This document shows, one piece after another, positions 18,001-24,000 of a stretch of 64,000 nucleotides of DNA. Numbering within the stretch: the stretch's first letter is position 1; the number at the start of each line of letters is the position of its first letter. The DNA is from Escherichia coli (GTDB taxonomy: Bacteria; Pseudomonadota; Gammaproteobacteria; Enterobacterales; Enterobacteriaceae). The stretch lies in assembly GCF_045037415.1 (NCBI RefSeq), contig NZ_CP173438.1; one strand, 5' to 3'. Made by a program: the position numbers.

Positions 18001-21000
18001 ACGGGTTTACATCCCTAAAAGCAACGGCAAACTGCGACCACTGGGTATCCCCGCGTTGCGGGATCGTATTGTTCAGCGGGCCATGCTGATGGCGATGGAG
18101 CCGATATGGGAGAGTGATTTTCATACGCTCTCATATGGCTTCCGGCCTGAGCGCAGTGTCCACCACGCGATCCGCACGGTGAAATTACAGCTCACAGACT
18201 GTGGTGAAACCCGGGGACGCTGGGTGATTGAAGGCGACCTGTCCAGTTACTTCGACACCGTACATCATCGACTGCTGATGAAGGCTGTACGCCGCAGGAT
18301 CAGTGACGCACGTTTCATGACTCTGCTGTGGAAAACCATCAAGGCGGGACATATCGATGTCGGTTCTCTTTCGGGCGGCCAGTGAAGGTGTGCCACAGGG
18401 CGGTGTTATATCGCCGCTATTATCGAACATCATGCTGAATGAGTTCGATCAATACCTGCATGAGCGCTACCTGAGCGGGAAAGCCAGAAAAGATCGGTGG
18501 TACTGGAATAACAGTATCCAACGGGGCCGAAGTACGGCGGTCAGAGAAAACTGGCAGTGGAAACCCGCGGTGGCGTACTGCCGCTATGCCGATGATTTTG
18601 TCCTCATCGTCAAAGGCACCAAAGCACAGGCGGAAGCCATCAGGGAGGAGTGTCGGGGTGTGCTCGAAGGCAGTCTGAAACTCAGGCTGAACATGGATAA
18701 GACTAAAATCACCCATGTTAATGACGGCTTTATCTTTCTGGGGCACAGGATCATTCGCAAACGCAGTCGTTATGGCGAGATGCGAGTGGTCTCAACGATC
18801 CCGCAGGAGAAAGCCAGAAACTTCGCCGCATCGCTGACAGCACTGTTATCAGGCAACTACAGTGAAAGCAAAGTCGATATGGCTGAACAACTCAACCGAA
18901 AACTGAAAGGCTGGGCCATGTTCTATCAGTTCGTTGATTTTAAGGCCAAAGTCTTCAGTTATATCGACCGTGTCGTGTTCTGGAAGCTGGCTCACTGGCT
19001 GGCCCGCAAATACCGTACAGGTATCGCTTCCCTGATGAGGTGGTGGTGTAAATCACCGAAACCGGGTCAGAGCAAAACGTGGGTTTTATTTGGTAAAACC
19101 AATCACGGCAAGCTCAGCGGCGAAATACTGTACCGGTTGGTGGGGCAAGGCAAGAAGCTGTTCCGCTGGCGGCTACCCGAAGGTAATCCCTATCTGAGGA
19201 CGGAGACCAGAAACACGTATACATCGCGCTTTACAGAAGTGGCAATGGCGTTCGCCAGCATTTAAATGGAGAGCCGGATGCGCTGAAAGGTGCACGTCCG
19301 GTTCGGGGAGGAGAGGCAGGGAAATAGTCCGACTACGCCCTGCCTCTTACTCTACTCTGGACGGGTAAGCGCTGGGCGTACCTCGCCGTTGTTCTCGACC
19401 TGTTCGCAAGAAAACCAGTGGGCTGGGCCATGTCGTTCTCGCCGGACAGCAGGCTTACCATGAAAGCACTGGAAATGGCATGGGAAACCCGTGGTAAGCC
19501 CGTCGGGGTGATGTTCCACAGCGATCAAGGCAGTCATTATACGAGCAGGCAGTTCCGGCAGTTACTGTGGAGATACCGGATCAGGCAGAGTATGAGTCGG
19601 CGTGGAAACTGCTGGGATAACAGCCCAATGGAGCGCTTCTTCAGGAGTCTGAAGAACGAATGGGTGCCGGCGACGGGCTATGTAAGCTTCAGCGATGCAG
19701 CTCACGCAATAACGGACTATATCGTTGGATATTACAGCGCACTAAGACCGCACGAATATAATGGTGGGTTACCACCAAACGAATCGGAAAATCGATACTG
19801 GAAAAAACTCTAACTCGGTGGCCAGTTTTTGTTGACCACTTCACTTATACTCGCCAGGGATATGCAATTGAAGCAATTACCGCCACGATTGACTGGATAA
19901 AAGAGAACGGTTTTTCACTCATCAAAGCCGGTGTGAATCCGGAAAATACCCTTTCAAAAAAATTACTTATCAGGATTGGCTTCAATTTTTCGAGCATCGA
20001 AGATGGGTGAGCATATTTATGTTCTGGATTAAACAAAAGGAGAATAATCTCCCGAAGGGAAAAGCCGATGAGGCCATTTCAGGCGTACTTCAACATGCAT
20101 TCGTCAGTGTCATCTGCCTTTTCCAGTAAATGGGTTGGCATTCAATTTCCAAAGTACATCACACTTTTTCTACTGAAACATATCCCTCCTATAACTACGT
20201 GTTAATATTCGCTCCGTAAATACCTTTCAACTCAACCCGAGGCTTTGATGCTGGAGAATGTAATCATCCGATAATCAGTTCCCCGACCTTTTCAGGCCGG
20301 ACTGATTATCAATGCGCCGAAATCGAATGCGGACACCGCGGTGTGTTTGCACGTTTTGCACATGATGATTAAACAGGTTCTTCAGTATGAATTTATCCCG
20401 TCAGGAACAACGTACGTTACACGTTCTCGCTAAAGGTGGACGTATTGCGCACGTCCGCGATTCTTCAGGCCGCGTCACTTCCGTTGAATGCTACAGCCGC
20501 GAAGGGCTGTTGCTGACCGACTGCACGCTCGCCGTCTTCAAAAAACTCAAAACCAAAAAACTTATCAAGTCCGTCAATGGTCAGCCCTATCGAATCAACA
20601 CTACCGGGCTGAATAACGTTCGCGCTCAGCTCGATAATCGCTAAGGAGAGTTTCGATGACAGCACACCACTTCACTTTTCAAATCACAGATGAAAGTGAT
20701 GCCAGTGATATCCGGGAAGTCGAAACCCGCGCATTTGGCTTCAGCAAAGAAGCCGATTTAACGGCCTCTTTACTTGAGGATGAAAGCGCGCGCCCTGCGT
20801 TATCGCTGCTGGCCCGACATGAAGGCAAAGCCGTCGGGCATATTTTATTTACCCGGGCAACCTTCAAAGGGGAAATGGATTCACCGCTGATGCATATCCT
20901 CGCTCCCCTGGCAGTCATACCGGAATACCAGGGGATGGGCGTGGGAGGACGGTTGATACGCACTGGCATCGAGCACCTGAGGTTGATGGGCTGCCAGACG

Positions 21001-24000
21001 GTTTTTGTTCTCGGCCACGCCACCTATTACCCCCGACATGGGTTCGAACCCTGTGCCGGAGACAAAGGCTATCCGGCACCTTATCCCATCCCGGAGGAGC
21101 ACAAAGCCTGCTGGATGATGCAAGCACTCACCGCTCAGCCCATGAACGTGACCGGCCACATCCAGTGCGCGCAGGCCCTGATGAAACCGGAGCACTGGCG
21201 TGAATAACAATCTTGTTGTGCCCTTTTTAATGCTTAACCCAATAACAGGAATTAACTAATGGATATTCCACGTATTTTTACCATCAGTGAAAGCGAACAC
21301 CGCATCCACAACCCGTTCACCGAAGAGAAGTACGCCACGCTGGGTCGCGTGCTGCGCATGAAACCAGAGACCCGAATTCTGGACCTCGGCAGCGGCTCGG
21401 GCGAGATGCTCTGCACCTGGGCCCGGGATCATGGCATTACGGGGACTGGAATCGACATGAGTTCGCTCTTCACCGCGCAGGCCAGACGCCGCGCGGAAGA
21501 ACTCGGCGTCAGCGAACGCGTACATTTTATTCATAATGATGCGGCGGGTTACGTCGCCAATGAAAAATGTGACGTAGCAGCCTGCGTTGGCGCGACCTGG
21601 ATTGCCGGAGGCTTTGCCGGGACAGTCGAACTGCTGGCGCAGAGCCTTAAACCGGGCGGGATCATGCTCATCGGTGAACCTTACTGGCGTCAGCTTCCGG
21701 CAACGGACGAGATAGCCCAGGCCTGTGGCGTCAGCTCGACGACCGATTTTCTGACGCTACCAGGGCTTGTCAGCGCGTTTGACGACCTCGGCTACGACGT
21801 GGTGGAAATGGTACTGGCGGACCAGGAAGGCTGGGACCGATATGAGGCCGCGAAATGGCTGACCATGCGCCGCTGGCTGGAGGCCAATCCTGACGATGAC
21901 TTCGCCGCCGAAGTCAGGGCCGAGCTAAACATCTCGCCGAAACGCCACGTAACGTACGCGCGGGAATACTTTGGCTGGGGCGTGTTCGCACTCATCGCTA
22001 GGTAACAACAGGTTCCCGGTATTTCTGACTGGAGATACCGGGGGCTTAGCCTTTGCTTTAATCTGATGCATCACCTGCACAATACATATTCAGTATGTTT
22101 ATTAATCAAGATGTCACCATAAGGAGCATCATATGTCACAACATGAACAGTTCTGTCAGGCTTGCGGAATGCCGATGTCGGCACCAGATGCACACAGTGC
22201 CAGTGATCAATATTGTGCGTACTGCAGCGACAGCAACGGCAATCTCAAACCCTGGGAAGAAGCGGTATCAGGTTTAGCCAGCTTCCTTGATTCCTGGCAA
22301 AAAGTCGGCCCGGAGGAAGCACATAAGCGTGCAAAACGTTATCTGACGGCAATGCCAGCCTGGGCTCATAAAGCGGAGAGTGATTTGAGCTGATTATCTA
22401 TACTCCCTCTGAATCTATTCAGGAGATCCGATGTTTTCTTACATTATGCTGGGAACCAACGACCTGCCACGCGCCATTACATTCTAAGATCCGCTGATGG
22501 AGATGCTGGGGTATCCACGTGCAGGACGTAATGAAGAGGGAGCGTCCTGCAACAAAGTGGTGCGATAACAGTTACCGCGTTTTATTCATTCTCATTATTT
22601 CAACCATAATCACTGGTCTCTCTAGCCCGTAACTTTCACAAACGTTGAGCGCTTTTATTCCACTCGGCTCACATAATTTTTTATTTGTTCAGCTTTGCGC
22701 GTTTTCACGTGAACGTTCTCACAATTATTCGACCAGTCTGCGCCTATAAAACGCTCAACGAGTGATTGTTTTACGGTCTACGGAGATAGCTATGTCATTT
22801 TCTGTGCAGGAAACCCTGTTCTCGCTTTTGCAGCACAATGCGATTTCAGGACACGAAAACGCTGTCGCTGACGTCATGCTGTGCGAATTCAGGCGTCAGG
22901 CAAAAGAGGTCTGGCGAGACAGGCTTGGGAATGTCGTCGCGCGCTACGGTAGTGATAAACCCGATGCGCTGCGACTGATGATTTTTGCGCATATGGATGA
23001 AGTCGGTTTTATGGTGCGCAAAATAGAGCCTTCTGGATTTTTACGCTTTGAACGCGTAGGCGGTCCTGCGCAGGTCACTATGGCTGGATCCATCGTCACC
23101 CTCACCGGGGACAAAGGGCCAGTCATGGGGTGTATCGGCATTAAGTCCTACCACTTTGCCAAAGGCGACGAGCGCACGCAGTCACCTTCTGTCGACAAAC
23201 TGTGGATTGATATTGGTGCCAAAGACAAAGACGACGCTATACGAATGGGCATTCAGGTCGGTACGCCTGTCACTCTGTATAACCCGCCGCAACTCCTGGC
23301 AAACGATCTGGTGTGCAGTAAAGCACTAGACGATCGTCTGGGCTGTACTGCCCTGCTCGGTGTAGCGGATGCTATCAGTACTACGGAGCTTGATATCGCC
23401 GTTTATCTGGTGGCTTCGGTACAGGAAGAATTTAATATCCGCGGCATTGTTCCCGTATTACGCCGTGTAAAACCTGACCTGGCGATTGGTATTGATATCA
23501 CTCCATCGTGTGACACCCCTGATTTACACGATTATTCCGAGGTCAGGATTAATCAGGGCGTTGGGATCACCTGCCTGAACTACCATGGTCGGGGAACGCT
23601 GGCCGGATTAATCACGCCTCCTCGCCTGATACGGATGTTGGAACAGACGGCTCTTGAACACAACATTCCGGTGCAGCGAGAAGTGGCTCCCGGCGTGATA
23701 ACAGAAACCGGTTATATCCAGGTTGAGCAGGATGGTATTCCCTGCGCCAGTCTCTCTATTCCTTGTCGCTATACCCATTCTCCGGCGGAGGTTGCCAGCC
23801 TGCGTGATTTGACTGATTGCATCCGCCTATTGACCGCTCTGGCAGGTATGTCAGCAGCACATTTCCCCGTTGAGCCTGATTCAGGCACTACACAAGAGGC
23901 ACATCCATTATGAAAAAGATCCTTGTGGCATGCGGTACCGGCATGTCGACTTCAACCATGATTGCACACAAGCTGCAAGAGTTCCTGACTGAACAGGGCA

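Follow-up and report, generated by a model that had tools for sequence, protein, structure and literature searches.

An intact chromosomal toiL-topAI-yjhQ-yjhP operon with consensus-type alleles in Escherichia coli ST131, very probably a translation-stress response

Type II toxin-antitoxin (TA) systems such as ccdAB, relBE, and mazEF combine a small toxic protein with a co-transcribed protein that binds and neutralizes it. GNAT-fold proteins also occur in two-gene TA units (TacT/TacA, AtaT/AtaR, ItaT, and KacT); in systems of the TacT/AtaT type, the GNAT toxin acetylates aminoacyl-tRNA and the antitoxin is a small DNA-binding protein. In ermC/ermB-type attenuation, a drug-stalled ribosome on a short uORF opens a hairpin that hides the downstream ribosome-binding site. 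The toiL-topAI-yjhQ-yjhP operon of E. coli resembles each of these in part. As in type II systems, a small toxic protein is bound and neutralized by a co-transcribed protein (published for K-12), but here the toxin gene precedes that of the neutralizer, whose 183-aa sequence belongs to an enzyme family and lacks a DNA-binding domain. Expression is under the control of a sensory uORF and Rho, with no autoregulation found. The family is rare on plasmids and phages, and its members do not keep a constant partner. The GNAT-toxin systems likewise have a GNAT-fold protein in a two-gene unit, but with the roles reversed: here the YjhX-family winged-helix protein is the toxic component and the GNAT protein is the neutralizer. 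The uORF and hairpin recall ermC/ermB, whereas at least five antibiotic classes elicit a response from toiL, which works also via Rho, and the first gene that it regulates encodes an inhibitor of topoisomerase rather than any known resistance enzyme.

With K-12 alleles, TopAI overexpression is toxic, co-expression of YjhQ rescues the cells, and the two proteins co-purify (PMC4666372). The toxicity is known from overexpression only and the complex from solubility-tag fusions only; the pull-down used purified proteins at 4 degrees C, and acetyl-CoA is not mentioned (PMC4666372). In EMSA experiments, neither YjhQ nor the TopAI-YjhQ complex bound the promoter, and no autoregulation was found (PMC4666372). 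Binding of TopAI to topoisomerase I has independent evidence behind it, as does an effect of topAI deletion on growth (PMC11695965). The transcription start, a rut element, the hairpin model, the membership of yjhP in the operon, a Rho-dependent termination site within approximately the first 42 nt of topAI, and the antibiotic response of toiL were all described in PMC12121999. The published experiments used K-12-type alleles throughout, which are unlike those studied here at TopAI positions 9, 18, 74, and 77 and at the YjhQ C terminus. The operon is already known, and recognizing it is an annotation-level result. Taken as a whole, the locus is very probably an intact chromosomal toiL-topAI-yjhQ-yjhP operon with consensus-type alleles that serves as a translation-stress response and not as an addiction module.

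Layout of the operon and its upstream neighbours

The window, meaning the whole 64,000-nucleotide stretch of contig NZ_CP173438.1 (RefSeq assembly GCF_045037415.1) that was analysed, comes from an E. coli ST131 strain of phylogroup B2. The features discussed below are as follows.

16323-19843, + strand: ISEc52 (RefSeq name), an IS911-like element of the IS3 family, in two parts (16323-17084 plus 19356-19843, 1250 bp)
17085-19355: group II intron, 2.27 kb, which splits ISEc52 (Rfam RF00029 at 19269-19355, E = 2e-11)
19867-20010, + strand: what is left of the GNAT pseudogene yjhZ after the IS cut into it, lying between the IS and the topAI promoter (RefSeq)
20216-20386, + strand: topAI 5' leader, from the published transcription start, 171 nt upstream of topAI
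20248-20274, + strand: toiL, an 8-codon sensory uORF (MLENVIIR*), read from the sequence
20387-20644, + strand: topAI (yjhX), encoding an 85-aa topoisomerase I inhibitor of the YjhX family
20645-20655, + strand: spacer between topAI and yjhQ, 11 nt, GGAGAGTTTCG, read from the sequence
20656-21207, + strand: yjhQ, encoding a 183-aa GNAT-family protein; full-length, ancestral allele
21259-22005, + strand: yjhP, third gene of the operon, encoding a 248-aa class I SAM-dependent methyltransferase (Methyltransf_25 and related Pfam families, RefSeq)
22039-22055, + strand: candidate terminator-like stem-loop 3' of yjhP, a possible operon end (weak; consensus scan alone)

Many genomes of B2 and ST131 strains have annotated topAI/yjhQ/yjhP that are 100% identical to the segment 19800-22400. 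The K-12 operon (b4566, b4307, b4306) has the same genes in the same order, equally spaced and at the same place in the chromosome, topAI-yjhQ lying between yjhR and sgcX (sgc). All 85 positions of TopAI are covered by its match to Pfam PF09857 (YjhX_toxin, E = 8e-42), and it also matches NCBIfam NF010240 (E = 9e-47); YjhQ matches the Pfam GNAT families PF00583 (E = 8e-12) and PF13508 (E = 6e-9); the proteins are 95% and 94% identical to K-12 TopAI and YjhQ, respectively. These matches, together with the conserved position, bear out the topAI-yjhQ arrangement named in the original prediction. It had placed a GNAT gene 12 bp after topAI; the gene is indeed downstream, but the spacer is 11 nt. 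For the K-12 alleles, published experiments directly support its description of a toxin-antitoxin pair (PMC4666372), while the two-gene unit it proposed is genuine but partial, the larger operon comprising the toiL leader, topAI, yjhQ, and yjhP (PMC12121999). A Shine-Dalgarno sequence (AAGGAG) ahead of yjhQ overlaps the topAI stop codon, an arrangement consistent with translational coupling from topAI to yjhQ.

The pair was also said to lie beside IS911, and the flanking element is IS911-like, of the IS3 family, and split by a group II intron whose left junction has the 5' end GTGTG. ISEc52 is 90-98% identical to K-12 IS911, and both of its halves are 100% identical to an uninterrupted copy in Nissle 1917 and to a second copy in the window (45518-46767). 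Relative to K-12, the upstream yjhZ is partly replaced by this intron-bearing element, and the K-12 alignment breaks down upstream of ~19845-19850. The insertion leaves the control region of the operon untouched: upstream, the right end of ISEc52 stops short of the topAI start by ~540 bp and of the published transcription start by ~370 bp.

The toiL leader and the protein alleles

The promoter is placed by identity to K-12 and by the transcription start given in PMC12121999; a sigma-70 consensus scan of the + strand upstream of topAI gave no site. The leader (20216-20386) differs from that of K-12 at a single position, C/T at 20373, and its pyrimidine-rich 5' end corresponds to the published rut element. 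The ATG of toiL (20248) is 139 nt upstream of the topAI ATG, and its position, the flanking TTG/CTG, and AAT as the fourth codon agree with the published description. In the minimum free energy fold (-62.5 kcal/mol, z = -2.7), AUGCUGGAGAAU of toiL pairs with GUUCUUCAGUAU at the topAI start. The predicted repressive hairpin would thus pair the toiL start region with the start and ribosome-binding region of topAI, in agreement with the published model. Twenty leaders of different species retain seven pairs that join the toiL start to the topAI start, one of them with CG/UA covariation. Of 80 species-level loci, 77 have a toiL-like uORF (MLE..I.) located 119-151 nt upstream of topAI. An Rfam search returned the group II intron as its sole match, with no family matching the toiL leader.

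The window and K-12-type TopAI proteins differ at positions 9, 18, 74, and 77. At the first three, the window allele has the family consensus (R9, G18, and G74) and K-12 has H, R, and E; the K-12 protein therefore carries three substitutions at near-invariant positions. TopAI is modeled with confidence as a winged-helix protein with a lysine-rich helix and wing; residues 52-61 form a lysine-rich segment. A search of PDB sequences with TopAI gave no meaningful match (best E = 0.41), and the PADLOC defence models matched neither TopAI nor YjhQ. A partial PADLOC match of YjhP to mad2 was dismissed as generic methyltransferase similarity.

GNAT is the only Pfam domain in YjhQ, and there is no DNA-binding domain. 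The acetyl-CoA motif Q92-x-x-G95-x-G97 is invariant in the alignment of YjhQ homologues. YjhQ matched just two PDB sequences at E ≤ 1e-3, both uncharacterized acetyltransferase/acyltransferase entries (4zbg and 4rs2). A GCGCGC run has lost 2 nt in K-12 yjhQ, and the last residues are altered as a result; the deletion occurs in K-12 and BL21-type strains (~887 genomes) and yields a 181-aa protein with a different tail. The C terminus encoded in the window, ALMKPEHWRE, is kept in Enterobacter, Citrobacter, Salmonella, Klebsiella, and Buttiauxella, and its PEHWR core extends to homologues in Bacteroides, Methanolobus, and Desulfovibrio. Sequence conservation marks the full-length yjhQ of the window as ancestral and the allele of K-12/BL21 as derived. 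The RefSeq labelling of the window gene as a "frameshifted" pseudogene looks like an artefact of the reference, because it is K-12 yjhQ that carries the 2-nt deletion. A reading of yjhQ as a pseudogene that leaves an orphan toxin was rejected on the conservation of the C terminus.

Distribution of topAI and its neighbours

The module is carried by 1653 of 5426 complete E. coli genomes (~30%), in a variable chromosomal region, and 1792 of 1793 E. coli YjhX places are chromosomal. About 108 E. coli genomes have a second YjhX locus, near lsr, in which a leader ~83% identical is followed by a methyltransferase gene and no GNAT gene. The gene after topAI was classified by simple ORF rules at the 80 best species-level loci out of at least 543 YjhX loci, a sample skewed to Enterobacterales: it encodes a methyltransferase in 41, a GNAT protein in 20, and something else or nothing in 19. 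Citrobacter and Proteus are among the genera with a methyltransferase gene right after topAI. A close YjhQ relative (73-100% identical) directly follows topAI in seven of the 80; at a Serratia locus, one is present with a methyltransferase gene between it and topAI. The common partner classes are GNAT proteins, HD-GNAT fusions, and SAM methyltransferases. No other coding part is as well conserved across the Enterobacterales loci as topAI (84-100% identical). Among distant YjhX genes, some have convergent neighbours and no co-directional one, although most distant representatives are on contigs too short to show neighbours.

YjhQ and YjhP have their own distribution. YjhQ-like GNAT proteins (54-58% identical) occur without any TopAI in Bacteroides, Methanolobus, and Desulfovibrio, which makes TopAI improbable as their primary substrate. 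In Desulfovibrio, yjhQ (58% identical) and yjhP (74% identical) form a pair without TopAI; the methyltransferase with 74% identity to YjhP follows the YjhQ homologue in Desulfovibrio cuneatus. The idea that a 90-aa protein encoded upstream of the Desulfovibrio pair might be a TopAI relative in disguise was rejected, with an hhalign probability of 0.1. These patterns suggest that toiL plus topAI is the conserved evolutionary unit, to which E. coli and some other Enterobacterales have yjhQ-yjhP attached as a separable cassette of enzymes.

Function of the operon

Transferred from the K-12 data, the mechanism would run as follows. With no translation stress, the hairpin would block topAI translation and Rho would terminate transcription inside topAI, and for these reasons topAI, yjhQ, and yjhP would all be off. 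When antibiotics that target the ribosome are present, ribosomes would stall in toiL and the hairpin would open, allowing translation of topAI and read-through into yjhQ and yjhP. TopAI would bind the topoisomerase I-DNA complex and inhibit relaxation; binding of YjhQ to TopAI would cancel the toxicity. We infer that the operon is a translation-stress response in which an inhibitor and its neutralizer are co-induced, and not an addiction module that holds an island.

The original prediction had added that such modules can stabilize islands. In a classical type II addiction module, TopAI would supposedly be stable and YjhQ labile, and killing upon loss of the locus would stabilize the fim-leuX variable region. 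We regard this as very unlikely, even though TopAI is toxic when overexpressed, YjhQ rescues, and the proteins co-purify (PMC4666372), and the locus sits in a variable region beside IS elements in only ~30% of complete E. coli genomes. The toxin gene is first in the operon and the neutralizer is not expressible without it, because Rho polarity would tie YjhQ to TopAI expression. YjhQ has a GNAT domain alone and the published EMSA showed no promoter binding. The partner, GNAT or otherwise, varies among loci, and some distant YjhX genes are without a co-directional neighbour. In tblastn searches of mobile elements, YjhX genes turned up in just 26 of 72,556 plasmid records, among which several are the size of chromosomes, and in four of 50,697 phage records, all resembling bacterial contigs. 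The island-stabilizing claim is unsupported on each of these counts.

The invariant acetyl-CoA-binding motif of YjhQ and the fact that all common partner classes are group-transfer enzymes would suit an enzymatic, type VII-like neutralization, in which YjhQ, or methyltransferases at other loci, covalently inactivate TopAI or protect topoisomerase I. Acetylation of the lysine-rich residues 52-61 would be an example, and the confident model of TopAI shows a lysine-rich helix and wing. However, the pull-down worked with purified proteins, acetyl-CoA goes unmentioned, and no modification was reported; moreover, the existence of YjhQ-like proteins without TopAI makes another primary substrate probable. 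We think this explanation unlikely. An inducible resistance or tolerance cassette, in which toiL senses a ribosome-binding small molecule, YjhQ and YjhP modify that molecule or the translation machinery, and the topoisomerase effect of TopAI is secondary, also has a low probability. Nearly all other antibiotic-sensing uORFs govern resistance genes, and the authors of the toiL study speculate likewise (PMC12121999); the cargo shares broad superfamilies with aminoglycoside acetyltransferases and rRNA methyltransferases, and yjhQ-yjhP is conserved as a pair by itself. Against this, both proteins fall below every NCBIfam resistance-enzyme cut-off (YjhQ has a sub-threshold RimI match only, at 27.8 bits against 86.4, and YjhP has generic methyltransferase matches only), and the cited literature on the operon reports no resistance phenotype. 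The 84-100% identity of topAI also speaks against its being just a leader gene. A broader proposal is possible, and we advance it tentatively: toiL and topAI would form a portable platform that senses translation stress and drives interchangeable group-transfer enzymes, topAI-yjhQ being no dedicated TA pair and yjhQ-yjhP being independent. Such a platform may span Enterobacterales to Acinetobacter, Stenotrophomonas, and beta- and alphaproteobacteria, with several methyltransferase classes, GNAT proteins, and HD-GNAT fusions as cargo. The substrate of yjhQ-yjhP may be a molecule or cell component linked to the toiL signal, and neutralization of TopAI by YjhQ may be a secondary or overexpression effect.

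The translation-stress response remains our preferred reading of the intact operon. Recognition of topAI-yjhQ matters little alone, since the operon is published, but the side results are useful. TA surveys that trust the RefSeq frameshift label would mis-score B2/ST131 strains as carriers of an orphan toxin. Consensus alleles of the window type differ from all assayed alleles at three near-invariant TopAI positions. Finally, a toiL plus topAI core with variable enzyme cargo bears on the purpose of the operon, a question raised by the toiL authors (PMC12121999).

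The operon and its translation-sensing leader

The original prediction recognized a topAI-yjhQ arrangement, and this proved to be correct. The following genes were located.

20387-20644, + strand: topAI ORF, 85 aa; Pfam YjhX_toxin (PF09857) over all 85 positions, E = 8e-42
20656-21207, + strand: yjhQ ORF, 183 aa; match to GNAT acetyltransferase domains
21259-22005: yjhP, class I SAM methyltransferase, downstream of yjhQ

Many B2 and ST131 chromosomes of E. coli match positions 19800-22400 at 100% identity, and RefSeq labels their genes topAI, yjhQ and yjhP; together with the domain matches, this places the observation far beyond chance. 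The gap between topAI and yjhQ is 11 nt rather than the 12 bp first given, and a Shine-Dalgarno sequence overlaps the topAI stop codon. The operon is already known, and the unit originally proposed is too small, because yjhP downstream and the toiL leader upstream belong to it. Beyond yjhP lie an intact zinc-ribbon gene (PF12674; 22175-22393, + strand), at the position of the K-12 yjhY pseudogene, and a VOC-family fragment (∼22431-22547).

The published 171-nt topAI leader is present, and the only difference from K-12 between the promoter region and the topAI start is a C/T at 20373. The toiL ATG, at 20248, stands exactly 139 nt ahead of that of topAI and opens an 8-codon frame (MLENVIIR), whose flanking TTG/CTG and AAT fourth codon agree with the published description (PMC12121999). 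In the predicted fold (−62.5 kcal/mol, z = −2.7), the toiL start pairs with the start and ribosome-binding region of topAI, in agreement with the published model. For K-12-type alleles, two brakes keep the operon off, the toiL hairpin and Rho termination inside topAI; tetracycline, spectinomycin, retapamulin, erythromycin and tylosin induce it via ribosome stalling in toiL (PMC12121999).

Published experiments on K-12-type alleles also cover the proteins. Overexpression of TopAI arrests growth, co-induced YjhQ rescues it, and tagged fusions of the two proteins co-purify (PMC4666372). TopAI inhibits relaxation and binds the N-terminal part of topoisomerase I, but the full enzyme only when DNA is present; its toxicity is abolished by topoisomerase I overexpression or in a topA10 background (PMC4666372). 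Neither YjhQ nor the TopAI-YjhQ complex bound the upstream palindromes (PMC4666372). An independent study of evolved methylotrophic E. coli also found the TopAI-topoisomerase I interaction, and an effect of topAI deletion on growth (PMC11695965). For what has been published on K-12, namely TopAI toxicity, YjhQ rescue and co-purification, the toxin-antitoxin label is an acceptable description.

Window and K-12 alleles

YjhQ has 183 residues in the window and 181 in K-12, and the last residues differ because K-12 lacks two nucleotides in a GCGCGC run. The tail of the window protein, ALMKPEHWRE, is conserved in Enterobacter, Citrobacter, Salmonella, Klebsiella and Buttiauxella, and its PEHWR core recurs in 54-58% identical homologues of Bacteroides, Methanolobus and Desulfovibrio. 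This conservation across genera argues that the window carries the ancestral full-length form and that the K-12/BL21 allele, with its 2-nt deletion, is derived. The K-12-type junction occurs in ∼887 complete E. coli genomes, BL21 derivatives among them. RefSeq flags the window yjhQ, and the matching features in two comparison loci (L001 and L003), as frameshifted pseudogenes, most probably because they were compared with the K-12-type protein.

TopAI of K-12 has H9, R18, E74 and K77. Among 78 full-length (85-aa) orthologues, taken from 80 species-level loci, position 9 is R in 78/78, position 18 is G in 77/78, position 74 is G in 78/78 and position 77 is never K; the window protein has the consensus residues. 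Since these K-12 residues are off consensus and K-12 yjhQ bears the deletion, the published experiments concern derived alleles, not consensus-type alleles such as those of the window.

Genomic surroundings and distribution

The operon had also been described as lying beside a rearranged IS911. The wording is acceptable, as an IS911-like element adjoins it and is split.

16323-17084 and 19356-19843: IS911-like IS3-family element, 1250 bp (ISEc52 in RefSeq), 90-98% identical to K-12 IS911
17085-19355, + strand: group II intron, 2.27 kb, splitting ISEc52; GTGTG 5′ end, Rfam RF00029 at 19269-19355

The insertion site of ISEc52 is the old yjhZ pseudogene; ∼370 bp separate the element from the topAI transcription start downstream of it, and the control region is intact. 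The element is uninterrupted in Nissle 1917 and most relatives. The intron carries an ltrA reverse transcriptase/maturase gene and sits within the IS transposase gene in the same orientation. Of the 5426 complete E. coli genomes, NZ_OY019088.1 (O25b:H4-ST131 isolate 42) alone has it at this site, and this is the one complete genome matching the whole of 14000-22400. Relative to it, the window ltrA has one extra T at ∼18365, which splits the gene into two ORFs (17741-18385 and 18357-19265).

Between nanM and ISEc52 (13663-16332) the genes are decayed: nanS, for a sialate O-acetylesterase, is truncated (13663-14229), a phosphorothioated-DNA-binding restriction endonuclease gene survives as a fragment, and the yjhR helicase gene lacks its N-terminal part (15226-16332). 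Further upstream, at 7811-10303, fimB is split by an ISL3-like element bearing an ISEc53-family transposase gene (8855-10075) and a ClbS/DfsB-family gene (8318-8836). A separate island-like block (∼35100-64000, genes on the − strand) holds McrBC (mcrB, 41469-43544), a second ISEc52 copy (45526-46695) within a restriction-modification cluster, ISEc12, a CbtA/YeeU type IV toxin-antitoxin pair (55596-55973 and 56063-56431), genes for antirestriction and JAB-domain proteins and the Cah autotransporter gene (59387-62233). No tRNA genes were found in the 64,000-nt window.

The suggestion that the module stabilizes an island finds no support in anatomy, regulation, partner conservation or distribution. 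Of 5426 complete E. coli genomes, 1653 have the module; YjhX genes in this species are chromosomal at 1792 of 1793 places, nearly always as one copy per genome. Plasmid records contain them in 26 of 72,556 cases, several being chromosome-sized or megaplasmids, and phage records in 4 of 50,697, all apparently bacterial contigs. A typical addiction module would be distributed differently.

Conservation of toiL-topAI and variability of its partners

YjhX proteins form a small family: 1.84 billion representative proteins yielded 234 clusters of them at 50% identity. A one-genome-per-species scan confirmed at least 543 relatives among the 600 pattern matches listed, and the best 80 were used for locus analysis. 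In 77 of these 80, topAI is preceded at a distance of 119-151 nt by a toiL-like uORF (MLE..I.), and pairing of the two starts is conserved in 20 diverse leaders, with CG/UA covariation at one pair. The next gene usually follows topAI by 4-15 nt and varies in kind: a SAM methyltransferase in 41/80 loci (several length classes, YjhP-like included), a GNAT in 20/80, another gene or none in 19/80. The GNATs comprise close YjhQ relatives directly after topAI (73-100% identical; 7 of the 80 loci), 168-217-aa proteins in Stenotrophomonas and relatives, and HD-domain/GNAT fusions of 355-382 aa in Acinetobacter and Pseudomonas.

In Serratia sp. H1w (L017, 629-3174), topAI is followed by a methyltransferase gene (290 aa), a fragment of 24 codons similar to the 3′ end of topAI, yjhQ and yjhP, an order that looks like a cassette-exchange scar at that end. 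A second leader-plus-YjhX locus, ∼83% identical over leader and gene, occurs in ∼108 E. coli genomes; in the one inspected (NZ_CP116094.1), it adjoins the lsr operon, beside lsrG and an epimerase gene, and a SAM methyltransferase gene truncated by IS21 follows after 10 nt, with no GNAT. The neighbors of two distant YjhX genes (46-49% identical) are all convergent. The enzymes also occur apart from TopAI. In Bacteroides and Methanolobus, YjhQ-like GNATs occur by themselves, and Desulfovibrio cuneatus (L097, 2501-3952) has homologues of YjhQ (58%) and then YjhP (74% identical to E. coli) without TopAI. A YjhP match this close is out of the ordinary for bacteria so far apart and suggests that the enzyme pair was transferred horizontally.

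Retention of the uORF, variability of the partner and occurrence of yjhQ-yjhP without TopAI point to toiL plus topAI as the conserved unit and to yjhQ-yjhP as a separable cassette. Conceivably, though we think it rather unlikely, toiL-topAI serves as a sensing platform to which one modifying enzyme or another can be coupled, and the antitoxin function is not the primary one of YjhQ. The best reading is of a translation-stress-induced, self-limiting topoisomerase I inhibitor operon.
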